Positions 36,001-64,000 of a DNA stretch of 64,000 nt are shown here, in pieces. The notes under the pieces are model-generated. The model did no database searches. It was given only the letters and a program-made list of their open reading frames with translations, and had not been told where the DNA came from. The translations under genes were made by a program, and so were the position numbers. Origin of the DNA: Eledone cirrhosa (lineage: Eukaryota); assembly GCA_964016885.1 (NCBI GenBank), contig OZ024753.1, forward strand, positions 22,072,001 to 22,136,000, read 5' to 3'. The number at the start of each line of letters is the position of its first letter. The first letter of the stretch is position 1.

Positions 36001-37790
36001 TACACCATTAGTGATGTAGTATATACACAATTAGTGATGTGGTATATACACCATTAGTGATGTAGTATATACACCATTAGTGATGTGGTATATACACCAT
36101 TAGTCATGTAGTATTTACACCAATAGTAATGTGGTATATACACCATTAGTGATGTGGTATCTACACCACCCAGTGATGTGGTATATACACCATTAGTGAT
36201 GTGGTATGTACACCATCCAATGATGTGGTATATACACCATTAGTGTGTTAGTATATAAACTATCCACTGATGTGGTATATACACCATTAGTGATGTGGTA
36301 CATACACCATTAGTGATGTGGTATATACTCCATCCAGTGATGTGGTATATTCACCATCAGTGATGTGGTATATACACCATTAGTGATGTGCTATATACAC
36401 CATAAGTGATGTGGTATATATACCATTAGTGATGTGGTATACACACCATCCGGTGATATGGTATATACACCATTAGTGATGTGGTATATACACCATTAGT
36501 TAAGTGGTATATACACCATTAGTGGTGTGATTTGGTATATACACCATCAGTGATGTGGTGGTATATACACCATCAGTGATGTGTTATATATACCATTAGT
36601 GATGTGGTATATACACCATTAGTGATGTGGTATATAAACCATCAGTGATGTGCCTGGTATATACACCATCAGTGATGTGTTATATACACCATTAGTGATG
36701 TCGTATATACACCATCAGTGATGTGGTATATACACCATCCAGTGATGTGGTATATACACCATTAGTGATGTGGTATATACACCATTAGTGATGTGGTATA
36801 TACACCATTAGTGATGTGACATATACACCATTAGTGATGTGGTATACACACCATTAGTGGTGTGGTATATACACCATTAGCCATGTGGTATATACACTAT
36901 CAGTGATGTGGTATATACATCATTAGTGATGTAGTATATACACCATCAGTGATGTGGTGGTATATACACCATCAGTGATGTGGTATATACACTCTTAGTG
37001 ATGTGGTATATACACCATCCAGTGATGTGTTATATACACTATTAGTGATGTAGTATATACACCATTAGTGATGAGGTATATACACCATCTACTGATGTGG
37101 TGTATACACCACTAGTTATGTGGTATATACACCATTAGTGATGTAGTATATACACAGTTAGTGATGTGGTATATACACCATTAGTGATGTGGTATATACA
37201 CCATTAGTAATGTATTTTATACACCATTAGTCATGTGTTATATACACCATTATTGATGTGGTATATACACCATTAGTGATATGGTATATACACCATTAGT
37301 GATGTGGTATATACACCATTACTGATGTGTTATATACACCATTAGTGATGGTGTATATACACCATCTGTGATGTGGTATATACACCATTAGTGATGTGGT
37401 GGTATATACACCATTAGTGATGTGGTATATACACCATTAGTGGTGTCGTATATACACCATCAGTGATGTGGTATATACACCATTACTGATGTAGTATATA
37501 CACCATTAGTGATGTGGTATATGCACCATTAGTGATGTGGTATATACGCCATTAGTTGTGTGGTATATACACTATCAGTGATGTGGTGGTATATACACCA
37601 TCAGTGATGTGGTATATACACCATTAGTGATGTGGTATATACACCATCCAGTGATGTGGTATATACACCATTAGTGATGTGGTATATACACCATTAGTGA
37701 TGTGGTATATACACCATTAGTGATGTGGTATATACACCATTAGTGATGTGGTATATACACCATTAGTAATGTGGTAGTATATACTGCACC
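1..37790. repeat. Satellite array 1, 23-bp monomer (consensus CACCATTAGTGATGTGGTATATA), running off the left edge
   Basis: Continuous 23-bp period (e.g. CACCATTAGT at 291 and 314). Recurrent variants: 26-bp GTGGTGG, 24-bp CATCCAGT, GTAGTA, CACAATT. Degenerates into unique DNA at ~37775-37810. Confidence 0.98.
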
Positions 37791-39210
37791 ATTTTAACTG
37801 TGGTGTTATGTCTGACCAGTCCATGGTTTCCGGGCTTTTTTGTGTCATTGCCGACTTTGACATAGACACATTTTCCACCACTCACTTGTATAGTAAATAT
37901 TCAAAAGAATACCTGTTACCGGTGCGTTATTCCCATTAACCTCCTGTTCTTTTTAAATACCTATTCTTTGCATATCTCCTTCATATATTTTTCTGCAGGT
38001 AACATATGTTGAAATACCTTTTTAATATTCAAATTCCTATATCATCCGCCAAAATTCCTAATTGCCGACCGTGTTCTATTTAGTTGCTCATCGGCCATCC
38101 AACAGTTGAAATCGCCCATCGGTGTTCACTAGAGTGTGTTTATATGTGGTCGTTGTTATCGTACCTGTGTATATCTATTTATTTATATTCATCTTCGGTC
38201 AGTATTCTGTGTTTGGTTATGGTTGTTGTTGTGGTTATTCCATTCGTTTTTTCTGTTCAACTTAGTTTTCTTAGTTCTATCTCAGCTGCTTCTCTAATTT
38301 GTCTGCTTGTCGTGTCATTTCTATGTTTAGATATTATTTTAATTTCTATTTTGCCTATATTACCATCATGTCTTTGTCTGTAAAATATCTAAACATAGAA
38401 ATGACTCAACATACCTAGAGACAAGTAGTTAATACAACCAGGCACCCCAACGAATTCCTGCTGACAGCTAAACCATCTAGAACAATAAGGTCTAACGACT
38501 TCTATACAATCTTTAATTTTATTTCGATTTCTAGACTTCCGCCTTCTCCTACCACGTTTTGCTTCTCCCCTTTTTCTCTCCTTTTCTCCTTTATCCCCCC
38601 CCCCCCACACTTTCAGCCTCTGCAATTCTGCTATTTATACTTTCGTCAAATATCTTCTATACCAATCCCATCGATCACCTTTACAATTCTTTGCAATTCC
38701 TAATTTCCGTTCACCATCTACCCACTCCCGTTACCCCCACCCTTCCTGATCCCAATAACATGTATATAAAACGAACATGGGACATATGTCAATAGTTTCG
38801 GTGCGATCGACCATGTAAACTCGCATATCTGAGGAGATGTCGATGAAGAGTTTAGATCCGATCGCCTTTTCAAACCCGAGTTGAACGATATCGATTTTTT
38901 AAACACGATATCTTGTTTTCTTCCTTTCTTTTTTCTTCCCTTTTTTCTTTGTTTTATTCATGAGACTCTCGTACTATCAGAGCCACCACACCTTTCCCCT
39001 GACGTCACAAATTTTATGTGTATTGGTTGTCGCTTAATGTCAATAAATTAATGTTTTGTCTCTCGTCTCTCTACTGGACAGCGTTTGGGTTGTGTCATTG
39101 TGACCCCGGGTGGACCAGCAGTACCGTTTATGGGGTCAAAGCTGCTAAGGTCCATCTCAATGGCCAATGACCCTGGAGTTCTGTGTTCTTCGCAAGAGGT
39201 TCTTTCCACA

Positions 39211-39229
39211 TTTTTCTGTCTCTTATGGC

Positions 39230-39327
<98 letters not shown>

Positions 39328-39341
39328 GCCATAAGAGACAG

Positions 39342-39346
<5 letters not shown>
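39211..39346. repeat. Palindrome: 23-bp unique arms enclosing ~90 bp of (TA)n
   Basis: TTTTTCTGTCTCTTATGGCAGGG (39211-39233), then (AT)n, then CCCTGCCATAAGAGACAGAAAAA (39324-39346), the exact reverse complement. Confidence 0.95.
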
Positions 39347-39372
<26 letters not shown>

Positions 39373-39385
39373 TGGAACAAGTAAG

Positions 39386-39479
39386 ACCCCGACGGCTGAG
39401 CTCAAGCCGTTTCGACGGCTAATTCTGTACTGGATGAAAATTTATTCTGGTATTTAAATAGCCGAGCTTATCAAGGGGT
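39386..39479 (-). ncRNA. Second copy of the same hammerhead ribozyme on the minus strand
   Basis: Reverse complement of 39855-39948 within the left arm; no differences seen in this segment. Confidence 0.78.
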
Positions 39480-39854
39480 AATTCCATATATGGTCAAAGA
39501 GATAATCACCAGGATTGGTCACATCACAAATTAGTAGTAAATCTGTGATGGCAAATTGGTGGGGGAAGAGGTAGCTAAACCTGCCGGTAGGAGAAAAAGG
39601 GAGAGGGGGTGGAGTAGACCCATTCATGCGTTTCGACCTCCTCCCCCTCCCCCTCCCCTGTATCCTCTTTGACCTCACACCCAGCTGTAGCTGGCACTAC
39701 CAACGCATGAATGGGTCTACTCCACCCCCTCTCCCTGTTTCTCCTACCGGCAGGTTTAGCTACCCCTTCCCCCACCAATTTGCCATCACAGATTTACTAC
39801 TGACTTGTGATGTGACCAATCCTGGTGATTATCTCTTTGACCATATATGGAATT

Positions 39855-39948
39855 ACCCCTTGATAAGCTCGGCTATTTAAATACCAGAATAAATTTTCAT
39901 CCAGTACAGAATTAGCCGTCGAAACGGCTTGAGCTCAGCCGTCGGGGT
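39855..39948 (+). ncRNA. Type I hammerhead ribozyme, U3-A8 core variant; predicted cleavage after GUC at 39943
   Basis: Stem I ACCCC(39855-59)/GGGGT(39944-48). Core TTGATAA (39860-66) equals CUGANGA with compensatory C3U/G8A. Stem II G-C closing pair plus CGGCTA/TAGCCG around a ~37-nt loop. GAAA at 39921-24. Stem III ACGGC/GCCGT capped by palindromic TGAGCTCA. GTC triplet present. Distal stem I GGAA/TTCC. Confidence 0.8.
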
Positions 39949-40039
39949 CTTACTTGTTCCTATTACCCACTCTACTACCCTAAGTATTGAGTACTTTGGT
40001 GCGTTATGGTCTACTTGGTTCCTTACCACATTTCCTTCG

Positions 40040-40040
<1 letters not shown>

Positions 40041-40110
<70 letters not shown>
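40041..40110. repeat. (TA)n microsatellite
   Basis: Pure TA run. Confidence 0.97.
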
Positions 40111-40114
<4 letters not shown>

Positions 40115-40143
40115 AAAGAATAGAGGTGTAACACACAAGTTAT

Positions 40144-40504
40144 TATATATTGGTAAACGGAATAGAAAATGCTGACAAATTGTTCACAGTGAAAAATAGT
40201 TTAATTAGGAATAAATGAGAATTAGTAATTGTATTGGTTAGTATTCAGTTTTGGTTTTAAGTTTTACCGGTTGCGCATTTCTAAATGCTTTTCAAAAATA
40301 ATTTTGAGATAGAGCGTCCGTGATGTTTGCTCTGATCCGGACGCTCTATCTCAAAATTATTTTTGAAAAGCATTTAGAAATTAGCAACCGGTAAAACTTA
40401 AAACCAAAACTGAATACTAACCAATACAATTACTAATTCTCATTTATTCCTAATTAAACTATTTTTCACCGTGAACAATTTGTCAGCATTTTCTATTCCG
40501 TTTA

Positions 40505-40514
<10 letters not shown>
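40144..40514. repeat. Inverted repeat, ~177-bp arms with a 17-bp spacer
   Basis: 40144-40320 is the reverse complement of 40338-40514, with ~3 substitutions. Spacer TGATGTTTGCTCTGATC. The right arm runs into (TA)n. Confidence 0.95.
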
Positions 40515-40582
<68 letters not shown>

Positions 40583-40595
40583 TATATATATATAT
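40508..40595. repeat. (TA)n microsatellite
   Basis: TA run with one AATT interruption. Confidence 0.97.
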
Positions 40596-40868
40596 GGGAC
40601 AAGCTTCGGGCTTACGGCAAGAGCACCCTGGTGGGGTGTTGCTCTTAGGGCTGTTAGTGATGTGGGCCTTCATGTTCTTAGCGCAGGAGTATCCTAGTTT
40701 TACTTTGTGTCGGTTAAAGATGGAGCGGTATTTATGACCTATGGGAAAGTGTCTATCTAAGAGAGCTAGAAATCTTTTTCCTACGTTGGTTTTAACGTTG
40801 AATGAGAAGGGAGGAGAGAACCAGTTAGTTTGTCTATTGTTACGCTTTGTTTTCTTATTGCTGTTGTT
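40596..40868 (-). pseudogene. Penelope-like retroelement fragment: linker between RT and GIY-YIG endonuclease, truncated at (TA)n
   Basis: Manual translation, 91 open codons: NNSNKKTKRNNRQTNWFSPPFSFNVKTNVGKRFLALLDRHFPIGHKYRSIFNRHKVKLGYSCAKNMKAHITNSPKSNTPPGCSCRKPEACP. Matches the remembered PLE linker pattern WFxPP..VxTNxG+xFLxL+DxHFP..IFNRxxVK+xYSC..CxCx5CP. Recognised from memory, not searched. Confidence 0.85.
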
Positions 40869-40878
40869 AATAAATTAT

Positions 40879-41001
40879 ATCAGTACTAGAATCTCAAACC
40901 TCTCCTCTAATAAGGCTATCTTTGACAGAGAAGCACCCTACTATAACACGGCGTTAGCTCACAGCGGCTTCTCGCAACTTATCACTTACTCTAACAACAG
41001 C
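40879..41001 (+). pseudogene. Penelope-like retroelement fragment: C-terminal end of the RT thumb
   Basis: ISTRISNLSSNKAIFDREAPYYNTALAHSGFSQLITYSNNS fits the PLE pattern IxxRISxxSS...F...YxxALxxSG+...Y that precedes the linker above. It ends in the same NNS codons with which the minus-strand piece begins. Confidence 0.8.
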
Positions 41002-41034
41002 GCGTTCGTACGATTGTCCTTCCTGTTCCGTATA

Positions 41035-41092
41035 ACCATGTCCATTACGAACTGAGGATACGCTAAGGTGAAACAATTGTTCTCGGCATGGT
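41035..41092 (+). ncRNA. Minimal type I hammerhead ribozyme of PLE type, possibly decayed
   Basis: CTGAGGA (41052-58), one extra T, short stem II AC..GT, then GAAAC-AATT-GT (2-bp stem III with palindromic tetraloop). GTT triplet at 41079-81. Stem I CGA/TCG with an A-C mismatch next to the core, extended by ACCATGT/GCATGGT. Confidence 0.6.
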
Positions 41093-41183
41093 GAACTAAC
41101 TGTTGTGTTACCACTTCTACCTAACTCGTCCCATGAACTGAGTGCTCTACCACTACGGATATTACCTTCCAGTGTTCTAACAC

Positions 41184-41386
<203 letters not shown>

Positions 41387-41633
41387 CATTATCTATAAAA
41401 GGCAGATTGTTGTTGTTGTGTGTGTGTGTGTGCAGGTTCCATGTTTATACATTTGCACAATTTCAAACCGATTCGACTCAAAGTCTGTAAGACTGTTGTA
41501 AATGGTATAAATAGTCAACGACTATTTATTCCATTCAGATTCACCCACAATTACGGAAATAATTGATAAAACTAAATACATGACGCTTTACCCCTCTAAT
41601 AGAATCTGATACCTCTCTCTACTCTCCTTAAAC

Positions 41634-41637
<4 letters not shown>

Positions 41638-41676
<39 letters not shown>
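41638..41676. repeat. (GA)n microsatellite inside the Helitron
   Basis: Direct reading. Confidence 0.95.
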
Positions 41677-41679
<3 letters not shown>

Positions 41680-41766
41680 CGTTTGTTTTTTTAGTGTGGA
41701 ACGGTCAAATATTTATTTACTTCAATGACAAAGAGAACTTATTACATTTCATACGAAACAACAATT

Positions 41767-42333
41767 ATTCAAAAGCAACAGATAAATTTATTCAACAACA
41801 AAAAAAATGCCGATAAATCTTTTTTAAAACATCTATCAACGAACGTGGAAGAAAGAAGTATCAGTTCATTTACTATACACAATAATATCCTCTATGAGGT
41901 CACTAAACCTGCTAGAAACAGCAGCTAACTCTCCCCCATATCACACCACTCCCTACTGTCTTAAATTTAGAAAACATATCCTATATGAGGTTACTAAACC
42001 TGCTAGAAACAGCAGCTAACTCGCCCCCATATTCAAAAGCAACAGATACATTTTTTCAACAACAACAAAAATAGCGATAAATCTTTTTTAAAAGATCTAT
42101 CAACGAACGTGGAAGAAAGAAGTATCAGTTCATTTACTATACACAATAATATCCTCTATGTGGTCACTAAACCTGCTAGAAACAGCAGCTAACTCTCCCC
42201 CATATCACACCACTCCCTACTGTCTTAAATTTAGAAAACATATCCTCTACGAGGTCACTAAACCTACTAGAAACAGCAGCTAACTCTCCCCCATATCACA
42301 CCACTCCATACTGTCTTAAATTTAGAAAACACA
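41767..42333 (+). repeat. Nested tandem duplication: 264-bp unit x2 containing a 91-bp subunit
   Basis: ATTCAAAAGCAACAGATA at 41767 and 42031. ATATCCTCTATGAGGTCACTAAACC-like starts at ~41885, 41976, 42149 and 42240. Confidence 0.92.
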
Positions 42334-42626
42334 TTAGACAACCACGCAGAACAACTCCATCGCAGCTCTGTTGTTCGGCTGGCATCGTCTACGCGCGTGT
42401 TGTGCAAGTACTGTGAAACAATAAATTTCAACACTTCTTTGCACAGAGATAATATCCATAGGTGAAACTACAATTGTCACTGCTGGCGCAGCTCCTGCTT
42501 CGGCAGTCCAGGTCTGCAATTCATTCACCCAGTGCCTGGCAGACAAAAGAGTGCTGCCATAAAATGGGTGGTGCAACCTAACTTTGGTAACTTACTGACC
42601 CCGAGCAACGCCGGGCTTTAATGCTA

Positions 42627-42627
<1 letters not shown>

Positions 42628-42697
<70 letters not shown>

Positions 42698-42712
42698 TAT
42701 ATATATATATAT
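42628..42712. repeat. (TA)n microsatellite
   Basis: TA run with a short CA interruption. Confidence 0.96.
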
Positions 42713-42903
42713 AGCTTTTACAGGACTAGAACTGTTTACAATTTCATAGGGAGCGGGTTGGCAAGACCTTTCAGTCCTGACTTAATAAAGAACATTATTG
42801 AATACGATTCCAAGATTGACGTAGACGCTCTGACAGTTGTGAAATATTTGTGTTTTGAATCATCAATAATAGAATAGGCAATATAACAATTCCTTAGAAG
42901 CAA

Positions 42904-44239: not shown

Positions 44240-47200
44240 AAGGTGTTGTACTAGTTGTTAGGGATACCAGTTGTTAGGGATAAAAGTTGTTAGAGATACA
44301 ACGGCCAATTCAGCGTCTACAAAACCTGTTTTATTGGTAGTATAACGTGAAATACAATAGAAACTGCCATAACAACTAGTATCTCTAGAGATACTAGTTG
44401 TTAGAAATACTAGTTGTTAGAGATACTAGTTGTTAGAGATACTAGTTGCTAGAGATACTAGTTGTCAGGGATACTAGTAGTTAGAGATACTAGTTGTCAG
44501 GGATACTAGTAGTTAGAGATACTAGTTGTCAGGGATACTAGTTGTTACAGATACTATAGTTAGAGATCTAACTATAGTATCTGTACCAACTAGTATCCCT
44601 GAGAACTAGTATCTCTAACAACTAGTGCCTCTAACAACTAGTATATCTAACAACTAATATCTCTAACAATTAGTATCTCTAACAACTAGTATCTGTAGCA
44701 ACTAGTATCTCTAACAACTAGTATCTCTAACTAGTATATCTAACATCTAGTATCTCTAACTAGTATATCTAACAACTAGCATCTCTAACAACTAGTGTCT
44801 CTAACAACTAGTATCTCTAACAACTAGTATCTCTAACAACTAGTATCTCTAACAACTAGTGTCTCTAACAACTAGTATCTCTAACAACTAGTATCTCTAA
44901 CAACTAGTATCTCTAACAACTAGTGTCTCTAACAACTAGCATCTGTAACAACTAGTATCTCTAACAACTAATATCTCTAACAACTAGGATCTCTAACAAC
45001 TAGTATCTGTAGCAACTAGCATCTCTAACAATTAGTGTCTCTAACAACTAGCATCTCTAACAACTAGTATCTCTAACAACTAGTATCTCTAACAACTAGC
45101 ATCTCTAACAACTAGTATCTGTAGCAACTAGTATCTCTAACAACTAGCATCTCTAACAAATAGTGTCTCTAACAACTAGCATCTCTAACAACTAGTATCT
45201 CTAACAACTAGCATCTCTAACAACTAGTATCTCTAACAACTAGCATCTCTAACAACTAGTATCTGTAACAACTAATATCTCTAACAACTAGCATCTCTAA
45301 CAACTAGTATCTGTAGCAACTAGTATCTCTAACAACTAGCATCTCTAACAACTAGTATCTGTAGCAACTAGTATCTCTAACAACTAGCATCTCTAACAAC
45401 TAGTATCTGTAACAACTAGTATCTCTAACAACTAGTATCTCTAACAACTAGTATCTCTAACAACTAGTATCTGTAGCAACTAGTATCTCTAACAACTAGT
45501 ATCTCTAACAACTAGTATCTCTAACAACTAGCATCTCTAACAACTAGTATCTCTAACAACTAGTATCTCTAACAACTAGTATCTATAACAACTAGTATCT
45601 GTAGCAATTAGTATCTCTAACAACTAGTATCTCTAACAACTAGTATCTCTAACAACTAGCATCTCTAACAACTAGTATCTGTAGCAACTAGTATCTCTAA
45701 CAACTAGTATCTCTAACAACTAGTATCTCTAACAACTAGCATCTCTAACAACTAGTATCTGTAGCAACTAGTATCTCTAACAACTAGCATCTCTAACAAA
45801 TAGTGTCTCTAACAACTAGCATCTCTAACAACTAGTATCTCTAACAACTAGCATCTCTAACAACTAGTGTCTCTAACAACTAGTATCTCTAACAACTAGT
45901 ATCTCTAACAACTAGTATCTCTAACAACTAGTATCTCTAACAACTAGTATCTCTAACAACTAGTATCTCTAACAACTTAGTATCTGTAGCAACTAGTATC
46001 TCTAACAACTAGTATCTCTAACAACTAGTATCTCTAACAACTAGCATCTCTAACAACTAGTATCTGTAGCAACTAGTATCTCTAACAACTAGCATCTCTA
46101 ACAACTAGTGTCTCTAACAACTAGCATCTCTAACAACTAGTATCTCTAACAACTAGTATCTCTAACGACTAGTATCTCTAACAACTAGTATCTGTAGCAA
46201 CTAGTATCTCTAACAACTAGTATCTCTAACAACTAGTATCTCTAACAACTAGTGTCTCTAACAACTAGTATCTCTAACAACTAGTATCTCTAACAACTAA
46301 TATCTCTAACAACTAGTGTCTCTAACAACTAGTATTTCTAACAACTAGTATCTCTAACAACTAGTATCTCTAACAACTAGTGTCTCTAACAACTAGCATC
46401 TCTAACAACTAGTATCTCTAACAACTAGTATCTCTAACAACTAGTGTCTCTAACAACTAGCATCTCTAACAACTAGTATCTGTAACAACTAATATCTCTA
46501 ACAACTAGCATCTCTAACAACTAGTATCTGTAGCAACTAGTATCTCTAACAACTAGTATCTCTAACAACTAGCATCTCTAACAACTAGTATTTGTAGCAA
46601 CTAGCATCTCTAACAACTAGTGTCTCTAACAACTAGCATCTCTAACAACTAGTATCTGTAGCAACTAGTATCTCTAACAACTAGTATCTCTAACAACTAG
46701 TATCTCTAACAACTAGCATCTCTAACAACTAGTATCTGTAACAACTAATATCTCTAACAACTAGCATCTCTAACAACTAGTATCTCTAACAACTAGTATC
46801 TCTAACAACTAGCATCTCTAACAACTAGTATCTCTAACAACTAGCATCTCTAACAACTAGTATCTGTAGCAACTAGTATCTCTAACAACTAGCATCTCTA
46901 ACAACTAGTAGCCCTGACAACTAGTATCTCTAACAACTAGTATCTGTAACAACTAGTATCTCTAACAACTAGTATCTGTAACAACTAGTATTTCTAACAA
47001 CTAGTATCTCTAACAACTAGTATCTCTAACAACTAGTGTCTCTAACAACTAGCATCTCTAACAACTAGTATCTGTAACAACTAGTATTTCTAACAACTAG
47101 TATCTCTAACAACTAGTATCTGTAACAACTAGTATTTCTAACAACTAGTATCTCTAACAACTAGTATCTGTAGCAACTAGTATCTCTAACAACTAGCATC

Positions 47201-50200
47201 TCTAACAACTAGTATCTGTAGCAACTAGTATCTCTAACAACTAGCATCTCTAACAACTAGTATCTGTAGCAACTAGTATCTCTAACAACTAGCATCTCTA
47301 ACAACTAGTATCTGTAGCAACTAGTATCTCTAACAACTAGTATCTCTAACAACTAGTATCTCTAACAACTAGTATCTCTAACAACTAGCATCTCTAACAA
47401 CTAGTATCTCTAGCAACTAGTATCTCTAACAACTAGCATCTCTAACAACTAGTATCTGTAGCAACTAGTATCTCTAACAACTAGTATCTCTAACAACTAG
47501 TGTCTCTAACAACTAGTATCTGTAGCAACTAGTATCTCTAACAACTAGTATCTCTAACAACTAGTATCTCTAACAACTAGTATCTGTAACAACTAGTATT
47601 TCTAAGAACTAGTATCTCTAACAACTAGTATCTCTAACAACTAGCATCTCTAACAACTAGTATCTCTAACAACAAGTATCTCTAACAACTAGTGTCTCTA
47701 ACAACTAGTGTCTCTAACTAGTATATCTAACAACTAGCATCTCTAACAACTAGTATCTCTAACAACTAGTATCTCTAACAACTAGTGTCTCTAACTAGTA
47801 TATCTAACAACTAGCATCTCTAACAACTAGTATCTCTAACAACTAGCATCTCTAACAACTAGTATCTCTAACAACTAGTATCTGTAACAACTAGCATCTC
47901 TAACAACTAGCATCTCTAAGAACTAGCATCTCTAACAACTAGTATCTCTAACAACTAGTATCTCTAACAACTATCATCTCTAACAACTAGTATCTCTAAC
48001 AACTAGTATCTGTAGCAACTAGTATCTCTAACAACTAGTATCTGTAACAACTAGTATCTCTAACAACTAGCATCTCTAACAACTAGTATCTCTAACAACT
48101 AGTATCTCTAACAACTAGTGTCTGTAGCAACTAGTATCTCTAACAACTAATATCTCTAACAACTAGTGTCTGTAGCAACTAGTATCTCTAACAACTAGTA
48201 TCTCTAACAACTAGTGTCTGTAACAACTAGTATCTCTAACAAATAGTGTCTGTAGCAACTAGTATCTCTAACAACTAATATCTCTAACAACTAGTGTCTG
48301 TAGCAACTAGTATCTCTAACAACTAGTATCTCTAACAACTAGTGTCTGTAACAACTAGTATCTCTAACAACTAGCATCTCTAACAACTAGTATCTGTAGC
48401 AACTAGTATCTCTAACAACTAGTATCTGTAACAACTAGTATCTCTAACAACTAGCATCTCTAACAACTAGTATCTCTAACAACTAATATCTCTAACAACT
48501 AGTATCTGTAGCAACTAGTATCTCTAACAACTAGCATCTCTAACAACAAGTATCTCTAACAACTAGCATCTCTAACAACTAGCATCTCTAACAACTAGTA
48601 TCTCTAACAACTAGCATCTCTAACAACTAGCATCTCTAACAACTAGTATCTCTAACAACTAGTATCTCTAACAACTAGTATCTCTAACAACTAGCATCTC
48701 TAACAACTAGCATCTCTAACAACTAGTATCTCTAACAACTAGTATCTGTAGCAACTAGTATCTCTAACAACTAGTATCTCTAACAACTAGTATCTCTAAC
48801 AACTAGTATCTCTAACAACTAGTATCTGTAACAACTAGTATCTCTAACAACTAGTATCTCTAACAACTAGTATCTCTAACAACTAGTATCTCTAACAACT
48901 AGTATCTCTAACAACTAGTATTTCTAACAACTAGTATCTCTAACAACTAGTGTCTCTAACAACTAGTATCTCTAACAACTAGTATCTCTAACAACTAGTA
49001 TCTGTAACCACTAGTATCTCTAACAACTAGTATACCTAACAACTAGTATCTGTAACAACTAATATCTCTAACAACTAGTATCTCTAACAACTAGTATCTC
49101 TAACAACTAGTATCTCTAACAACTAGTATCCCTAACAACTAGTATCTGTAACAACTAATATCTCTAACAACTAGTATCTCTAACAACTAATATCTCTAAC
49201 AACTAGTATCTGTAGCAACTAGTATCTCTAACAACTAGCATCTCTAACAACTAGTATCTCTAACAACTAGTATCTCTAACAACTAGTATCTCTAACAACT
49301 AGTATCTCTAACAACTATTATCTCTAACTACTAGTATCTCTAACATCTAGTATCTCTAACAACTAGTATATGTAACCACTAGTATCTCTAACAACTAGTA
49401 TACCTAACAACTAGTATCTGTAACAACTAGTATCCTTAACTAGTATCTCTAACAACTAGTATCTCTAACAACTAGTATCTCTAACAACTAGTATCTGTAA
49501 CAACTAGTATCTCTAACAACTAGCATCTGTAACAACTGGTATACTTAACAACTAGTATCTCTAACAACTAGTATCTGTAACAACTAGGATCCCTGACAAC
49601 TAGTCTCCCCAACAACTAGTATATGTAACAACTAGTATATCTAACAATTAGTATCCCTAACAACTAGTATTTGTAACAACTAGTATCCTTAACTAGTATC
49701 TCTAACAACTAGTAGCCCTGACAACTAGTATCTCTAACAACTAGTATCTCTAACAACTAGTATCTGTAACAACTTGTATCCCTGACAACTAGTATCCCTA
49801 ACAACTAGTATCTCTAACAACTAGTATCGCTAACAACTAGTATCTCTAACAACTAGTATCCTTAACTAGTATCTCTAACAACTAGTATCTGTAACAACTA
49901 GTATCCCTGACAACTAGTATCCCTAACAACTAGTATCTCTAACAACTAGCATCTCTAACAACTAGTATCTGTAGCAACTAGTATCTCTAACAACTAGTAT
50001 CTGTAACAACTTGTATCCCTGACAACTAGTATCCCTAACAACTAGTATCTCTAACAACTAGTATCGCTAACAACTAGTATCTCTAACAACTAGTATCCTT
50101 AACTAGTATCTCTAACAACTAGTATCTGTAACAACTAGTATCCCTGACAACTAGTATCCCTAACAACTAGTATCTCTAACAACTAGCATCTCTAACAACT

Positions 50201-50942
50201 AGTGTCTCTAACAACTAGCATCTCTAACAACTAGTATCTGTAACAACTAGTATCTCTAACAACTAGTATCTCTAACAACTAGTATCTCTAACAACTAGTA
50301 TCTCTAACAACTAGTATCTCTAACAACTAGTATCTCTAACAACTAGTATCTCTAACAACTAGTATCTCTAACAACTAGTATCTCTAACAACTAGTATCTC
50401 TAACAACTAGTATCTCTAACAACTAGTATCTCTAACAACTAGTATCTCTAACAACTAGTATCTCTAACAACTAGTATCTCTAACAACTAGTATCTCTAAC
50501 AACTAGTATCTCTAACAACTAGTATCTCTAACAACTAGTATCTCTAACAACTAGCATCTCTAACAACTAGTATCTGTAACAACTAGTATCTCTAACAACT
50601 AGTATCTCTAACAACTAGTATCTCTAACAACTAGTATCTCTAACAACTAGTATCTCTAACAACTAGTATCTCTAACAACTAGTATCTCTAACAACTAGTA
50701 TCTCTAACAACTAGTGTCTCTAACAACTAGCATCTCTAACAACTAGTGTCTCTAACAACTAGCATCTCTAACAACTAGTATCTGTAACAACTAGTATCTC
50801 TAACAACTAGTATCTCTAACAACTAGCATCTCTAACAACTAGTGTCTCTAACAACTAGCATCTCTAACAACTAGTATCTGTAACAACTAGTATCTCTAAC
50901 AACTAGTATCCCTAACAACTAGTATCTCTAACAATTAGTATC
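44240..50942. repeat. Satellite array 2, 16-bp monomer (consensus AACAACTAGTATCTCT)
   Basis: 16-bp period (e.g. AGTA at 50281 and 50297). Variants TAGCATC, TAGTGTC, CTGTAGC. Reverse-oriented monomers at ~44240-44300 and 44387-44564; forward from 44567. Confidence 0.98.
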
Positions 50943-51517: not shown

Positions 51518-54500
51518 AGAGTCGTTAGTACTAGGAATAGAACGGTAGAGTCTTTAGTACGGGGGATAGAACGGTAGAGTCATTAATACGTCTGATAGAA
51601 TGGTGGTGGTTAGAACGTCTCATAGAATGGTAGAGTGGTTAGTACGTCAGATAGAATGGTAGAGAGGTTATAACGTCGGATAGAATGGTCGAGTTGTTAG
51701 AACGTCGGATAGAAGGGTAGAGTGGTTAGAACGTCAGATAGAATGGTAGGGTGGTTAGAACGTCTGATAGAATAGCAGAGTGGTTAAAACGTCAGATAGA
51801 ATGGTAGTGGTTAGAACGTCAGATAGAATGGTAGAGTGGTTAGAACGTCAGATAGAATGGTAGAGTGGGTAGAACATCTGATAGAATGATAGAGTGGTTA
51901 GAACGTCAGATAGAATGGTAGAGTGGTTAGAACGTCTGATAGAATGGTAGTGGTTATAACGTCAGATAGAATTGTAGGGTCGTTAGAACAGCAGGTAGAA
52001 TGGTAGAGTGGTTAGAACGTCTGATAGAATGGTAGAGTGGTTATAACGTCGAATAGAATGGTAGAGTTGTTAGAACGTCGGGTAGAATGGTAGAGTGGTT
52101 AGAACGTCGGATAGAATGGTAGTGGTTAGAACATCAGATAGAGTGGTTAGAACGTCAGATAGAATGGTATAGTTGTTAGAATGTCAGATAGAATGGTGGA
52201 GTGGTTAGAACGTCAGATAGAATGGTAGAATGGCTAGAACGTAGATAGAATGGTAGTGGTTAGAACGTCAGATAGAATGGTAGAGTGGTTAGAACGTCAG
52301 ATAGAATGGCAGAGTCGTTAGAACGTCAGATAGAATGGTAGTGAGGTTAGAACGTCATATAGAATGATATAGTGGTTAGAACGTCAGAGAGAATGGTAGA
52401 GTGGTTAGAACGTCTGATAGAATGGTAGAGAGGTTAGAACGTCAGATAGAATGGTATAGTTGTTAGAATGTCAGATAGAATGATAGAGTGGTTAGAACGT
52501 CAAATAGAATGGTAGAGTGGTTAGAACGTCTGATAGAATGGTAGAGTGGTTAGAACGTCAGATAGAATGGTAGAGTTGTTAGAACGTCAGATAGAATGGT
52601 AGAGAGGTTAGAACGGCATATAGAATGGTACACTGGTTAGAACGTCAGAGAGAATGGTAGAGTGGTTAGAACGTCAGATAGAATGGTAGAGTGGTTAGAA
52701 CGTCTGATAGAATGGTAGAGTGGTTATAACGTCGGATAGAATGGTAGAGTGGTTAGAACGTCGGATAGAATGGTAGTGGTTAGAACGTCATATAGAATGG
52801 TACAGTGGTTAGAACGTCAGAGAGAATGGTAGTCTGGTTAGAACGTCAGATAGAATGGTAGAGTGGTTACAACGTCTGATAGAATGGTAGAGTGGTTATA
52901 ACGTCGGATAGAATGGTAGACTGGTTAGAACATCAGATAGCATCGTAGAGTGGTTAGAATGTCAGATAGAATGGTAGAGTGGTTAGGACGTCAGATAGAA
53001 TGGTAGAGTTGTTAGAATATCAGATAGAATGGTGGAGTAGTTAGAACGTCAGATAGAATGGTTAGAACGTCGGATAGAATGGAAGAGTCATTAGAACGTG
53101 TGATAGAATGGTAGAGGTTAGAACGTCTCATAGAATGGTAAAGTGGTTAGTACGTCAGATAGAATGGTAGAGTGGTTAGAACGTCTGATACAATGATAGA
53201 GTGGTTATAACGTCAGATAGAATGATAGAGTGGTTACGACTTCTGATAGCATGCTAGTGGTTAGAACGTCAAATAGAATGGTAGAGTGGTTAGAACGTCA
53301 GATAGATTGGTAGAGTGGTTAGAACGTCCTATAGAATGGTAGAGGGTTTAGAACGTCAGATAGAATGGTAGATTGGTTAGAACGTCAAATAGAATGGTAG
53401 TGGTTAGAACGTCGGATAGAATGGTAGAGTGGTTGGAACGTCTGATAGAATGGTAGAGTGGTTAGAACGTCAGATAGAATGGTAGGGTGGTTACAACGTC
53501 AGCTAGAATGGTAGAGAGGTTAGAACGTCATATAGAATGGTACAGTGGTTAGAAAGCCAGAGAGAATGGTAGAGTGGTTAGAACGTCAGATAGAATGGTA
53601 GAGTGGTTAGAACGTCAGATATTATGGGAGAGTGGTTAGAACGTCAGATAGAATGGTAGAGTGGTTAGAATGTCTGATAAAATGGTAGTGGTTAGAACCA
53701 CAGAAAGAATGGTAGAGTGGTTAGAACGTCAGATAGAATGATAGAGTTGTAGAAGGTCAGATAGAATGGTAGTGGTTAGAACCTCAGATAGAATCGTAGG
53801 GTGGTTAGAACGTCAGATAGAATGATAGAGTTGTTAGAACGTCAGATAGAATGGTAGAGTGGTTAGTACGTCGGATAGAATGGTAGAGTAGTTAGAACGT
53901 CAGATAGAATGGTATAGTGGTTAGAACGTCAGATAGAATGGTAGAAGGGTTAGAACGTCAGATAGAATGGTAGTGCTTAGAACGTCAGATAGAATGGTAG
54001 AGTGGTTGGAACGTCAGATAGAATGCTAGAGTCTTTTGAACGTCAGATATAATGGAAGAATGGTTAGAACTTCGGATAGAATGGTAGAGTTGTTAGAACG
54101 TCGGATAGAAGGGTAGAGTGGTTAGAACGTCAGATAGAATGGTAGAGTGGTTAGAATGTCAGATAGAATGGTAGAGTGGTTAGAACGTCAGATACAATGT
54201 TAGAGTGGTTAGAATGTCAAATAGAATGGTAGCATTGTTAGAACGTCGGATAGAAAGGTAGACTGGTTAGAACATCAGATAGAGCGGTTAGAACGTCAGA
54301 TAGAATGGTAGAGTTGTTAGAATATCAGATAGAACGGTGGAGTAGTTAGAACGTCAGAGAGAATGTTTAGAACGTCGAATAGAATGGTAGAGTCATTAGA
54401 AAATGTGATAGAATGGTAGTGGTTAGAACGTCTCATAGAATGGTAGAGTTATTAGAAAGTCGGATAGAATGGTAGACTGGTTAGAACGTCAAATAGAATG

Positions 54501-57500
54501 GTAGAGTGGTTAGAACGTCAGATAGAATGGTAGAGTGGTTAGAACGTCTGATAGAATGGTAGAGTGGTTACAACATCTGATAGAATGGTAGAATGGTTTG
54601 AACGTCAGATAGAATGGTAGAGTGGTTAGAACATCTGATAGAATGGTGAAGTGGTTAGAACGTCTGATAGAATGGTAGAGTGGTTAGAACGTCTGATAGA
54701 ATGGTAGTGGTTAGAACGTCAGATAGAATGGTAGAGTGGTTAGAACGTCAGATAGATTGGTAGAGTGGTTAGAACGTCCGATAGAATGGTAGAGAGGTTA
54801 GAACGTCGGATAGAAAGGTAGACTGGTTAGAACATCAGATAGAGTGCTTAGAACGTCAGATAGAATGGTAGAGTTGTTAGAATATCAGATAGAATGGCGG
54901 AAGAGTTAAAACGTCAGATAGAATGGTTAGAACGATGGATAGAATGGTAGAGTCATTAGAACGTGTGATAGAATGGTAGTAGTTAGAATGGTAGAGTGGT
55001 TATTACGTCAGAGAGAATGGTAGAGTGGTTATAACGTTGGATAGAATGGAAGAGTTGTTAGAACGTCGGATAGAATGGTAGATTCGTTAGAACGTCAAAT
55101 AGAATGGTAGAGTGGTTAGAACGTCAGATAGAATGGTAGAGTGGTTAGAACGTCAGATAGAATGGAAGAGTGGTTGGAACGTCTGATAGAATGGTAGAGT
55201 GGTTAGAACGTCAGAGAGAATGGTAGAGTGGTTAGAACGTCTGATAGAATGGTAGAGTGGTTAGAACGTCAGATAGAATGGTAGAGTGGTTAGAACTTCT
55301 GATAGAATGGTAGAGTGGTTAGAACGTCAGATAGAATGGTAGAGTGGTTGGAACGTCTGATAGAATGGTAGAGTGGTTAGAACGTCAGATAGAATGGTAG
55401 AGTGGTTAGAACGTCTGATAGAATGGTAGAGTGGTTATAACGTCAGATAGAATGGTAGAGTGGTTAGAACGTCTGATAGAATGGTAGAGTGGTTAGAACG
55501 TCAGATAGAATGGTAGGGTGGTTACAACGTCAGCTAGAATGGTAGAGAGGTTAGAACGTCATATAGAATGGTACAGTGGTTATAAAGCCAGAGAGAATGG
55601 CAGAGTGGTTAGAACGATCGATAGAATGGTATAGTGGTTAGAACGTCAGATATTATGGGAGAGTGGTTAGAACGTCAGCTAGAATGGTAGAGAGGTTAGA
55701 ATGTCATATAGAATGGTGGAGTATTTAGAACGTCGGATAGAATGGAAGAGTCATTAGAACGTGTGATAGAATGGTAGTAGTTAGAATGGTAGAGTGGTTA
55801 TTACGTCAGAGAGAATGGTAGAGTGGTTATAACGTTGGATAGAATGGAAGAGTTGTTAGAACGTCGGATAGAATGGTAGATTCGTTAGAACGTCAAATAG
55901 AATGGTAGAGTGGTTAGAACGTCAGATAGAATGGTAGAGTGGTTAGAACGTCAGATAGAATGGAAGAGTGGTTGGAACGTCTGATAGAATGGTAGAGTGG
56001 TTAGAACGTCAGAGAGAATGGTAGAGTGGTTAGAACGTCTGATAGAATGGTAGAGTGGTTAGAACGTCAGATAGAATGGTAGAGTGGTTAGAACTTCTGA
56101 TAGAATGGTAGAGTGGTTAGAACGTCAGATAGAATGGTAGAGTGGTTGGAACGTCTGATAGAATGGTAGAGTGGTTAGAACGTCAGATAGAATGGTAGAG
56201 TGGTTAGAACGTCTGATAGAATGGTAGAGTGGTTATAACGTCAGATAGAATGGTAGAGTGGTTAGAACGTCTGATAGAATGGTAGAGTGGTTAGAACGTC
56301 AGATAGAATGGTAGGGTGGTTACAACGTCAGCTAGAATGGTAGAGAGGTTAGAACGTCATATAGAATGGTACAGTGGTTATCAAGCCAGAGAGAATGGCA
56401 GAGTGGTTAGAACGATCGATAGAATGGTATAGTGGTTAGAACGTCAGATATTATGGGAGAGTGGTTAGAACGTCAGCTAGAATGGTAGAGAGGTTAGAAT
56501 GTCATATAGAATGGTGGAGTATTTAGAACGTCGGATAGAATGGAAGAGTCATTAGAACGTGTGATAGAATGGTAGAGGTTAGAACGTCTCATAGAATGGT
56601 AAAGTGATTAGTACGTCAGATAGAATGGTAGAGTGCTTAGAACGTCAGATAGAATGGTTGAGTGGTTAGAACGTCAGATAGAATGGAAGAGTGGTTGGAA
56701 CGTCTGATAGAATGGTAGAGTGGTTAGAACGTCAGAGAGAATGGTAGAGTGGTTAGAACGTCTGATACAATGAAAGGGTGGTTATAACGTCAGATAGAAT
56801 GATAGAGTGGTTACGACGTCTGATAGAATGCTAGTGGTTAGAACGTCAGATAGAATGGTAGAGTGGTTAGAACGTCAGATAGATTGGTAGAGTGGTTAGA
56901 ACGTCTGATAGAATGGTAGAATGCTTAGAAAGTCAAATAGAATGGGAGTGGTTAGAACGTCTGATAGAATGGTAGAGTGGTTAGAACGTCAGATAGAATG
57001 GTAGGGTGGTTACAACGTCAGCTAGAATGGTAGAGAGGTTAGAATGTCATATAGAATGGTACAGTGGTTAGAAAGCCAGAGAGAATGGTAGAGTGGTTAG
57101 AACGTCAGATAGAATGGTAGAGTGGTTAGAACGTCAGATATTATGGGAGAGTGGTTAGAACGTCAGATAGAATTGGAGAGTGGTTAGAATGTCTGATAAA
57201 ATGGTAGTGGTTAGAACCACAGATAGAATGGTAGAGTAGTTAGAACGTCAGATAGAATGGTAGAGTTGTAGAAGGTCAGATAGAATGGTAGTGGTTAGAA
57301 CCTCAGATAGAATCGTAGGGTGGTTAGAACGTCAGATAGAATGATAGAGTTGTTAGAACGTCAGATAGAATGGTAGAGTGGTCAGTACGTCGGATAGAAT
57401 GGTAGAGTGGTTAGAACGTCAGATAGAATGGTAGAGTGGTTAGAACGTCAGATAGAATGCTAGAGTGGTTAGAACGTCAGATAGAATGGTAGAAGTGTTA

Positions 57501-60500
57501 GAACGTTAGATTGAATGGTAGTTGTTAGAACGTCAGATAGAATGGTAGAGTGGTTGGAACGTCAGATAGAATGCTAGAGTCTTTTGAACGTCAGATATAA
57601 TGGAAGAATGGTTAGAACTTCGGATAGAATGGTAGAGTTGTTAGAATGTAGGATAGAATGGTAGAGTCGTTAGAACGTCAGATAGAATGGTAGAGTGGTA
57701 AGAACGTCAGATAGAATGGTAGAATGGTTAGAACGTCAGATAGAATAGTAGAGTGGTTAGAACGTCAGATAGAATGGTAGAATGGTTGGAACCTCTGATA
57801 GAATGATAGAGTGGTTAGAACGTTAGATAGAATGGTAGAATGGTTAGAACGTCGGATAGAATGGTAGTGGTTAGAATGTCAGATAGAATGGTAGAGTGGT
57901 TAGAATGTCAGATAGAATGGTAGAGTGGTTAGAACGTCAGATACATTGTTAGAGTGGTTAGAATGTCAAATAGAATGGTAGAATTGTTAGAACGTCGGAT
58001 AGAAAGGTAGACTGGTTAGAACATCAGATAGAGTGGTTAGAACGTCAGATAGAATGGAAGAGTGGTTGGAACGTCTGATAGAATGGTAGAGTGGTTAGAA
58101 CGTCAGAGAGAATGGTAGAGTGGTTAGAACGTCTGATAGAATGGTAGAGTGGTTAGAACGTCAGATAGAATGGTAGAGTGGTTAGAACTTCTGATAGAAT
58201 GGTAGAGTGGTTAGAACGTCAGATAGAATGGTAGAGTGGTTGGAACGTCTGATAGAATGGTAGAGTGGTTAGAACGTCAGATAGAATGGTAGAGTAGTTA
58301 GAACGTCTGATAGAATGGTAGAGTGGTTATAACGTCAGATAGAATGGTAGAGTGGTTAGAACGTCTGATAGAATGGTAGAGTGGTTAGAACGTCAGATAG
58401 AATGGTAGGGTGGTTACAACGTCAGCTAGAATGGTAGAGAGGTTAGAACGTCATATAGAATGGTACAGTGGTTATAAAGCCAGAGAGAATGGCAGAGTGG
58501 TTAGAACGATCGATAGAATGGTAGAGTGGTTAGAACGTCAGATATTATGGGAGAGTGGTTAGAACGTCAGCTAGAATGGTAGAGAGGTTAGAATGTCATA
58601 TAGAATGGTGGAGTATTTAGAACGTCGGATAGAATGGAAGAGTCATTAGAACGTGTGATAGAATGGTAGAGGTTAGAACGTCTCATAGAATGGTAAAGTG
58701 ATTAGTACGTCAGATAGAATGGTAGTGTGCTTAGAACGTCAGATAGAATGGTAGAGTGGTTAGAACGTCAGATAGAATGGAAGAGTGGTTGGAACGTCTG
58801 ATAGAATGGTAGAGTGGTTAGAACGTCAGAGAGAATGGTAGAGTGGTTAGAACGTCTGATACAATGAAAGGGTGGTTATAACGTCCGATAGAATGGTAGA
58901 GGGGTTAGAACGTCAGATAGAATCGTAGAATGTTTAGAACGTCAAATAGAATGGTAGTGGTTAGAACGTCAGATAGAATGGTAGAGTGGTTAGAATGTCC
59001 GATAGAATGGTAGAGTGGTTGGAACGTCTGATAGAATGGTAGAATTGTTAGAACGTCAGATATAATGGAAGAATGGATAGAACGTCGGATAGAATGGTAG
59101 AGTGGTTAGAACGTCAGATAGAATGGTAGTGGTTAGAACGTCAGATAGAATGGTAGAGTGGTTAGAATGTCAGATAGAATGGTAGAGTGGTTAGAACGTC
59201 AAATACAATGTTAGAGTGGTTAGAATGTCAAATAGAATGGTAGAATGGTTAGAACGTCGGATAGAAAGGTAGACTGGTTAGAACATCAGATAGAGTGGTT
59301 AGAACGTCAGATAGAATGGTAGAGTTGTTAGAATATCAGATAGAATGGTGGAGTAGTTAGAACGTCAGAGAGAATGGCTAGAATGTCTGATAGAATGGTA
59401 GAGTTATTAGAACGTCGGATAGAATGGTACACTGGTTAGAACGTCAAATAGAATGTTAGAGTGGTTAGAACGTCAGATAGAATGGTAGAGTGGTTAGAAC
59501 GTCTGATAGAATGGTAGAATGGTTAGAACAACTTATATAATGGAAGAATGGTTAGAACGTCAGATAGAATGTTAGAGTGGTTAGAACATCTGATAGAATG
59601 GTAAAGTGGTTAGAACGTCTGATTGAATGGTAGAGTGGTTAGAACGTCTGATAGAATGGTAGAGTCGTTAGAACTTCATATAGAATGGTGGCGGTTAGTA
59701 CGTCGGATAGAATGGTAGAATTGTTAGAACGTCGGATAGAAAGGTAGACTGGTTAGAACATCAGATAGAGTGGTTAGAACGTCAGATAGAATGATAGAGT
59801 TGTTAGAACCTCCGATAGAATGGTAGAGTGGTTAGAACGTCAGATAGAATGGTAGAATGGTTAGGACGTCGGATAGAATGGTAGAGTGGTTAGAACGTAA
59901 GATAGAATGGTAGAATGGTTAGCACGTCGGATAGAATGGTAGTGGTTAGAACGTCAGATAGAATGGTAGAGTGGTTAGAATGTCAGATAGAATGGTAGAG
60001 TGGTTAGAACGTCGGATATAAAGGTAGACTGGTTATAACATCAGATAGAGTGGTTAGAACGTCAGATAGAATGGTAGAGTTGTTAGAATATCAGATAGAA
60101 TGGTGGAGTAGTTAGAACGTCAGATAGAATGGTAGAGTGGTTAGAACGTCTGATAGAATGGTAGAATGGTTAGAACAACTTATATAATGGTAGAATGGTT
60201 AGAACGTCAGATAGAATGGTAGAGTGGTTAGAACATCTGATAGAATGGTAAAGTGGTTAGAACGTCAGATAGAATGGTAGAATGGTTAGGACGTCGGATA
60301 GAATGATAGAGTGGTTAGAACGTCATATAGAATGGTGGCGGTTAGAACGTCGGATAGAATGGTAGGGTGGTTGGAACGTCTGATAGAATGGTAGAATTGT
60401 TAGAACGTCGGATAGGAAGGTAGACTGGTTAGAACATCACATAGAGTGGTTAGAACGTCAGATAGAATGATAGAGTTGTTAGAACCTCCGATAGAATGGT

Positions 60501-63500: not shown

Positions 63501-64000
63501 AGAGTGGTAGAGTTGTTAGAATATCATATAGAATGGTGGAGTAGTTAGAACGTCAGAGAGAATGGCTAGAACGTCTGATAGAATGGTAGGGTTATTAGAA
63601 CGTCGGATAGAATGGTAGACTGGTTAGAACGTCAAATAGAATGGTAGAGTGGTTAGAACGTCAGATAGAATGGTAGAGTGGTTAGAACGTCTGATAGAAT
63701 GGTAGAATGTTTAGAACAACTTATATAATTGTAGAATGGTTAGAACGTCAGATAGAATGGTAGAGTGGTTAGAACATCTGAAAGAATGGTAAAGTGGCTA
63801 GAACGTCTGATTGAATGGTAGAGTGGTTAGAACGTCTGATAGAATGGTAGAGTGGTTAGAACGTCAGATAGAATGGTGGCGGTTAGAACGTCGGTTGAAT
63901 GGAAGAGTGGTTGGAACGTCTGATAGAATGGTAGAATTGTTAGAACGTCGGATAGAAAGGTAGACTGGTTAGAACGTGAAATAAAATGTTAGAATGGTAA
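51518..64000. repeat. Satellite array 3, 29-bp monomer (consensus GATAGAATGGTAGAGTGGTTAGAACGTCA), running off the right edge
   Basis: 29-bp period (e.g. 55321 to 55350). 27-bp (GGTAGTGG) and 21-bp deletion variants. Purine-rich + strand. Confidence 0.98.

Follow-up and report, generated by a model that had tools for sequence, protein, structure and literature searches.

What is a palindrome that carries a hammerhead ribozyme in each arm doing inside a (TA)n repeat of the Eledone cirrhosa genome, and does the ribozyme act there? The palindrome occupies positions 39374 to 40040 of a 64,000-nt stretch of contig OZ024753.1 (GenBank assembly GCA_964016885.1, positions 22,072,001 to 22,136,000, forward strand), hereafter the window, whose numbering is used throughout. 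An earlier note took it for a non-autonomous ribozyme retroelement. We instead read the locus as a head-to-head remnant of a Penelope-like element (PLE) of the Hydra clade, likely produced by the joining of two target-primed reverse transcriptions, and its hammerhead as likely cleaving part of the element RNA in vivo. We give this reading, which rests on genomic sequence, a probability of about 0.8. Two family-wide patterns carry it: copies that begin at the predicted ribozyme cut, and head-to-head pairs that combine a short with a long 3′ end.

The role of PLE hammerheads has been termed "still unclear" (PMC8557442). If our reading is true, hundreds of stubs starting at the scissile bond show a ribozyme acting on RNA that is undergoing retrotransposition, and the U3-A8 core of this hammerhead is functional in vivo. 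The pairing of one short with one long end would also offer a testable account of two unexplained traits of PLEs, the inverted pseudo-long terminal repeat (pLTR) and the one-sided tail.

A head-to-head remnant of an autonomous element

The two inverted arms (39374-39632 and 39702-39960) are 259 nt long each, 98% complementary and bordered by (TA)n on both flanks. The whole is a 667-bp head-to-head remnant, in which both arms are 5′-truncated pLTR copies:

39351..39373, no strand: (TA)n target, left flank, read from the sequence
39374..39632, minus strand: left arm, 5′-truncated pLTR copy whose short (S) 3′ terminus falls at the base of stem I
39386..39479, minus strand: type I hammerhead with U3-A8 core, predicted cut between 39391 and 39390
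39629..39632, no strand: head-to-head junction, 4-nt microhomology common to both arms, from comparison with other copies
39629..40040, plus strand: right arm, 5′-truncated pLTR copy running to the long (L) 3′ terminus
39849..39960, plus strand: type I hammerhead with extended stem I (core fold 39855-39948, U3 = 39860, A8 = 39865)
39943..39944, plus strand: predicted cleavage site, after C17; the start base of other genomic copies matches 39944
39964..40040, plus strand: 77-nt "tail", present in one arm only; in full-length copies it continues into the 5′ untranslated region (UTR) and the open reading frame (ORF)
40041..40110, no strand: (TA)35 target, right flank

The 3′ ends of the left and right arms are the two fixed 3′ termini of the family, which lie 77 nt apart. 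Both arms carry one variant unseen in the rest of 133 hammerhead hits. This copy is a member of a somewhat older subfamily, with a pLTR ~87% identical (gaps included) to that of the subfamily richest in intact ORFs. Palindromes next to (TA)n are typical trouble spots of assemblies, and no contig in four public runs covers the whole stretch. Nevertheless, an assembly artefact such as a fold-back chimera is extremely improbable, as the arms differ from each other at 4 positions and end at the two fixed family termini, and as the short end and the mini-palindrome joints described below recur in contigs of the four public runs, all from one study (which, as contigs, cannot reveal RNA ends).

When 39840-40040 is used as a query, 2,883 candidate matches are obtained in the 3.0-Gb genome of the species, the best 40 at 98-100%, and a 27-mer across the predicted cut has 9,482 exact matches. 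The sequence continues upstream into a 3′ UTR at the 30 loci examined, and downstream into an ORF at some. A protein search gave 77 scored matches and many open frames of at least 784 codons. In 20 stretches of 10 kb, the layout is pLTR-ORF-pLTR with a unit near 3.55 kb (3,553 bp), in runs of several tandem units; in copy L060, for example, the predicted cut is followed after 190 nt by the ATG, and the stop precedes the next cut by 1,209 nt. The intact single ORF encodes a protein of 717 aa, with a reverse transcriptase (RT) followed by a C-terminal GIY-YIG. By eye, this protein shows RWR, DKT, YRDD, CxCX5C (CNCPDRSIC), VIY..YIG, CxxC (CNLCSEE) and CxH (N..CKH). It has no match in Pfam and PDB searches, and its best homologue carries PF01541. 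Absence of a CCHH motif from the endonuclease is a further mark of the Hydra clade; in this protein, read without an alignment, only one Cys precedes YIG.

Craig et al. (2021; PMC8557442) describe Hydra-clade PLEs by a C-terminal GIY-YIG, RW(K/R), DKT, a CxCX5C linker, CxxC/CxH, a (TA)n target and a pLTR hammerhead, all of which are present here too, as are tandem or inverted copies and a one-sided tail. Size and tail differ from the typical, though not strict, values of the clade (generally <3 kb and 30-40 bp, against 3.55 kb and 77 nt). An initial assignment to the Neptune clade was dropped against this description. Judging from these sequence features, the parent is an autonomous Hydra-clade PLE with thousands of copies, and the locus is almost certainly a dead stub of a new family of that clade. 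This copy is thus an ordinary dead remnant; its interest lies in the family-wide junction evidence. As many ORFs are intact, the family can be reconstituted.

The earlier note was therefore right to see ribozyme-bearing, PLE-related retroelement sequence in (TA)n, and the genome-wide search of the arm that it proposed bears out a high copy number and a link to a PLE ORF, while the covariation that it hoped for is weak (see below). The element is not a non-autonomous one, since its sequence is that of a pLTR from an autonomous element whose ORFs are intact. Nor is the palindrome a conserved unit: because the inversion point varies among insertions, it is an integration by-product. An independent non-autonomous retrozyme, whose functional unit is the palindrome and which would either cleave itself or form a long hairpin supplying small-RNA pathways, would suit a locus that has no ORF and whose transcript could form a 259-bp hairpin, and a retrozyme-like tandem of 176-nt hammerhead units from this pLTR does occur at locus L071. 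We nonetheless consider it very unlikely, as arm lengths and junctions are different at every locus, the same sequence borders intact ORFs, and the junction of our locus is unique among the 40 best hits (30 examined). Non-LTR retrozymes are similarly non-coding and pLTR-derived with a type I hammerhead (bioRxiv 10.64898/2026.07.22.740005), but they are short direct tandem units that form a propagating family, whereas the locus is an inverted one-off insertion with a variable junction and ties to an ORF.

The hammerhead motif

Reading the sequence confirms a type I hammerhead with a U3-A8 core on the plus strand at 39855-39948 and its mirror copy on the minus strand, as the earlier note had it. 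Stem Ia pairs ACCCC (39855-59) with GGGGT (39944-48), and the core strand TTGATAA (39860-66) supplies U3 and A8. Stem II consists of G39867-C39920, then CGGCTA (39870-75) with TAGCCG (39913-18), enclosing 37 nt. The GAAA core strand (39921-24) leads into a 6-bp stem III (39924-29 with 39937-42) closed by a 7-nt loop, TGAGCTC, and followed by a GTC triplet in which C17 is 39943. Beyond an internal loop, stem I continues with GGAAT (39849-53) and GTTCC (39956-60). The core agrees with YUGANRA / GAAA / NUH and a Watson-Crick 3-8 pair, in the form U3-A8. A relaxed hammerhead descriptor finds 2 matches in the whole window, both at the locus, and the score of the locus is matched by 0 of 300 dinucleotide shuffles of 37801-42900. 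In 11 subfamily representatives, 96.8% of cells are paired in three helices with an open stem I, and the pair probabilities of the hammerhead helices are 0.5-0.97 in a 119-nt fold. U3 is present in 131 and A8 in all 133 of the full-length hammerhead hits (overlapping loci kept in); at core position 7, all four bases occur across the family. No hammerhead family is found among the 72 matches at E<=5 of an Rfam search, so that the check suggested in the earlier note brings no support from Rfam; the microRNA matches mirror the palindrome.

The earlier description of loop II, ~37 nt long, can be refined. In the youngest subfamily the insert can fold into a distal hairpin, so that an open loop is less likely than a long stem II with an interruption. 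A candidate upstream pairing for a contact of stem I with stem II is absent from the young subfamily; the stem I internal loop is present. A pseudoknot of the insert with 39819-39829 was dropped, that segment being absent from the young subfamily.

U3-A8 is a natural and active covariation (Perreault 2011; PMC3088659). Hammerheads at 78 metagenome loci of related proteins are mostly C3-G8; those of two loci, L117 and L130 (expected place), have U3-A8, which points to C3-G8 to U3-A8 covariation among Hydra relatives. Long loop II inserts or U3-A8 cores also occur in other hammerhead families of the same genome. U3-A8 families of unrelated sequence are found there at L005:74, L021:136, L027, L204 and L245, and L187, a copy of one such family, begins at its own predicted cut.

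5′ ends at the predicted cut

We predicted beforehand that, if cleaved RNA is reverse-transcribed, the resulting arms would begin at the cut; in the first case found, L213, both arms do so. Junctions were then counted by exact matching to equally degenerate patterns, with two non-reference bases ahead of the tested position (6 of 16 dinucleotides each). The cut gave 179 hits, against 13 at -7, 18 at -1 and 18 at +4 (binomial p ~1e-34 to 1e-38). The cut predicted after 39943 in the earlier note thus coincides with a pile-up of genomic 5′ ends. All 30 inspected cut-site hits are true junctions rather than point mutants, and many have 1-2 added A/T. The 18 hits at -1 are mostly cut-site joins with a chance C, with two point mutants and one deletion; three of them come from one tandem array restarting at the cut base. 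Tandem restarts at that base are observed at L250/251 and L270-272. A hand count of 50 listed mini-palindromes (of 377 sites) gave 21 with both arms at the cut, 6 with one arm and 2 ambiguous. Similarly, a second, unrelated hammerhead family (C3-G8; its ORF link is not established) has 26 hits at its cut against 5 at -3, all 20 inspected being junctions. Our literature search, which covered papers outside subscription, found no published report of PLE 5′ junctions at a hammerhead cut, and the pile-up seems to be new relative to the literature found.

Cut-site arms make up only a few percent of all arms, so most templates, including the one behind this locus, are uncut or re-ligated. That the hammerhead cleaves some template RNA in vivo is nevertheless likely, although several observations weigh against it. 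The junction patterns favour A/T filler and overlook microhomology joins. Position +1 has 118 hits; of the 100 listed, 62 read CA, as expected from a point mutation of CpG, and the others are real spill-over, which makes the peak wider than one base. (Position +1, being confounded by CpG mutants, was dropped as a clean control.) Downstream spill-over with an upstream wall at the cut is the pattern that run-off plus nibbling would give. Among the listed mini-palindromes, 21 of 50 join through stem III, and 8 of the 21 double-cut ones are blunt with a CG overlap, which leaves a one-base uncertainty. A broader and commoner truncation hot spot lies 22-47 nt upstream of the cut, in 9 of 15 short pairs; with the stem III joins, it means that RT stops or collapses occur elsewhere within the ribozyme as well. 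The predicted share of the active fold is ~0.02 for the window copy and 0.18 for the young subfamily, and flanking sequence lowers both. Family covariation is weak, with a two-sided change in 1 of 23 pairs and 10 of 500 shuffles equally good, and an older subfamily has C3-A8 (L167, L266). As detailed in the next section, the partner reads through for 4 of the 21 long arms that are cut. Finally, in Poseidon PAc of Anolis, the one PLE that has been reconstituted, the hammerhead is dispensable for insertion in vitro, and no RNA-seq reads end at its cut (PMC11167929).

The upstream hot spot, where both arms stop, is seen at L059, L183, L195, L208, L209, L214 and other loci; its equivalent in the window is ~39897-39922, and such joints also turn up in contigs of the four public runs. 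It may reflect an RT block at distal stem II, an RNA 5′ end or palindrome collapse.

The hammerhead might also be idle in vivo, the 5′ ends reflecting RT stalling at RNA structure (the base of stem III, the G run) or a transcription start. The other hot spots within the ribozyme, the low predicted share of the active fold, the weakness of PLE hammerheads in vitro (PMC4209133) and the lack of reads at the cut in Anolis (PMC11167929) all go in this direction. A stall at stem III, however, should retain C17, yet -1 has a tenth of the hits of the cut (18 versus 179). An unrelated family with a short, AU-rich stem III shows the same step, and a transcription start on the scissile bond in two families is unlikely. 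We therefore regard an idle hammerhead as improbable.

Pairing of short and long ends

In 66 loci picked by their ORF, the 39 head-to-head pairs are all short+long (39/39). All sets together contain 81 short+long, 4 long+long and 0 short+short pairs, the other sets having been chosen, unlike the ORF-picked loci, with long-arm queries. The long+long call at L036 represents two separate insertions, and that at L025 is unclear; a real long+long pair, L168, was missed by the pattern. No published count of strict short+long pairing was found in the literature search described above.

Truncation of the two arms is coupled. Of 21 long arms that start at the cut, 17 have an inverted partner whose end is at the cut or at most 6 nt away (the remaining 9 of the 30 inspected cut hits show a direct jump, a long-type partner or no partner that can be seen). 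Of 51 long arms that read through, 1 has a cut partner (Fisher p 7e-12; L169, flagged by the script owing to a variant, is counted as read-through). Arms also differ less within than between pairs (2.1 versus 4.3 differences, n=12; 0 versus 2.0, n=3), and 6 private variants are common to both arms of a pair, 15 of 48 pairs being long enough to compare. Within-pair likeness and coupled truncation fit two primings on one RNA, which we find plausible at close to even odds; gene conversion may be a further source of the likeness.

Alternatively, with the ribozyme cleaving, each arm derives from its own RNA molecule, the coupling being due to dimer co-cleavage (through the palindromic GAGCTC loop), to a shared master copy or to loss of the palindrome centre. 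This possibility, to which we would give somewhat less than an even chance, is compatible with the best explanation, and the template count is the sole difference. It agrees with a loop III that is indeed palindromic, with the symmetry of short pairs and with the four discordant pairs, and one source locus would explain the shared variants equally well. The strict short+long rule demands an asymmetric complex anyway, and neither single arms nor tandem restarts, starting at the cut with extra bases, can result from centre loss. The idea that the short arm arose from the long one by fold-back copying was dropped, as short-end arms can far exceed their partners (L056/055, L061, L170).

A possible insertion mechanism

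Under the reading that we prefer, the GIY-YIG nuclease would cut both strands of (TA)n, and two reverse transcriptions, likely on the same RNA, would begin, one from the short start site and the other from the long one. Both complementary DNAs (cDNAs) would stop early and then be end-joined, at this locus through 4 nt of microhomology. On ribozyme-cut RNA, the start sites would lie only ~20 and 97 nt from the 5′ end, so that RT would run off and leave stubs of 17 and 97 nt. Long copies and the present locus would stem from RNA that was uncut or had been re-ligated. Through cleavage, monomer RNA would be set free and a few percent of integrations would be lost, unless circles form.

A fuller model, which we offer tentatively, has a PLE protein dimer cut (TA)n and prime twice on one RNA. 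The second RT, 77 nt behind, would displace the first cDNA, every insertion would be an outward-facing short+long pair, and the hammerhead would be a switch: cut RNA would serve as messenger RNA or circle precursor and give stubs only, whereas uncut or circular RNA would give full copies. If this is true, cut-site stubs allow in vivo ribozyme activity to be assayed from the genome alone in any PLE family.

Comparison with known systems

Inverted 5′-truncated copies and a one-sided tail are known for PLEs, and Penelope-13_HM is listed with an inverted 5′-truncated copy and a hammerhead on both strands (PMC8557442). In Schistosoma, Cercyon PLEs carry U3-A8 hammerheads in their pLTR, including dual opposite-strand hammerheads 100-700 bp apart that were attributed to truncated PLEs (Cervera and de la Pena 2014; PMC4209133). 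Prior publications thus cover inverted pairs, hammerheads in the pLTR and U3-A8 cores, and the features described in the earlier note are real but not new in kind. Despite the shared core covariation and dual arrangement, Cercyon hammerheads are minimal and dimer-dependent, whereas ours has a stable stem III, and that paper reports no genomic sign of in vivo cleavage. In File S2 of PMC8557442, the core of every Hydra hammerhead is CUGA, loop II measures 4-10 nt and stem III 3-4 bp; the hammerhead here has U3-A8, an insert of 37 nt and 6 bp in stem III, whose loop is 7 nt long.

Poseidon PAc resembles our family in having two internal RT start sites, which define the tail, in double-strand cleavage of AT-rich DNA in vitro and in a predicted protein dimer (Frangieh et al. 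2024; PMC11167929). In vitro, its start site is equal between strands, whereas each insertion here has one start of each kind; and where PAc has no reads at the cut, cut-site ends are here fixed in the genome. The precedent for inferring ribozyme cuts from genomic junctions is R2, whose 5′ junctions mark the cut of its ribozyme, similar to that of hepatitis delta virus, and carry non-templated bases (PMC3774820). The R2 cut makes a full-length template; because the cut lies just upstream of the RT start sites in our family, cut linear RNA would give stubs instead.

Other observations in the genome and in the window

A second abundant Hydra-like family (L073-L084, L203-L212) has open frames of up to ~930-980 codons; its hammerhead was not located. 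At L071:1251-1754 (minus strand), two tandem 176-nt pLTR pieces, each with a whole hammerhead, are accompanied by a piece starting near the cut, possibly a newborn retrozyme array. At L054:9171-9999, a 55-58-bp ORF segment is repeated in tandem at least 15 times where a multi-unit insertion is 5′-truncated, which suggests repeated RT slippage.

Within the window, a second head-to-head palindrome in (TA)n lies at 40111-40507. It belongs to another repeat family, has 177-nt arms with ~33 extra bases in one arm only, and has similar copies in 9 of 221 loci; the relaxed descriptor finds no hammerhead in it. Pieces of another Hydra-like element follow at 40596-41186, with endonuclease-side homology at 40650-40844 (minus) and 40879-40989 (plus), and a decayed minimal C3-G8 hammerhead lies at ~41048-41090, with like copies in L022, L165 and L177. 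On the other side, a ~26-bp inverted repeat surrounds (TA)45 at 39210-39345, and its left copy terminates a longer repeat (~37790-39233); it possibly represents two 3′ ends of another (TA)n-targeting element. Satellites with units of 23, 16 and 29 bp extend over 3-37781, 44386-50942 and 51537-63998, respectively, and the retroelement cluster occupies the 7-kb gap between the first two.
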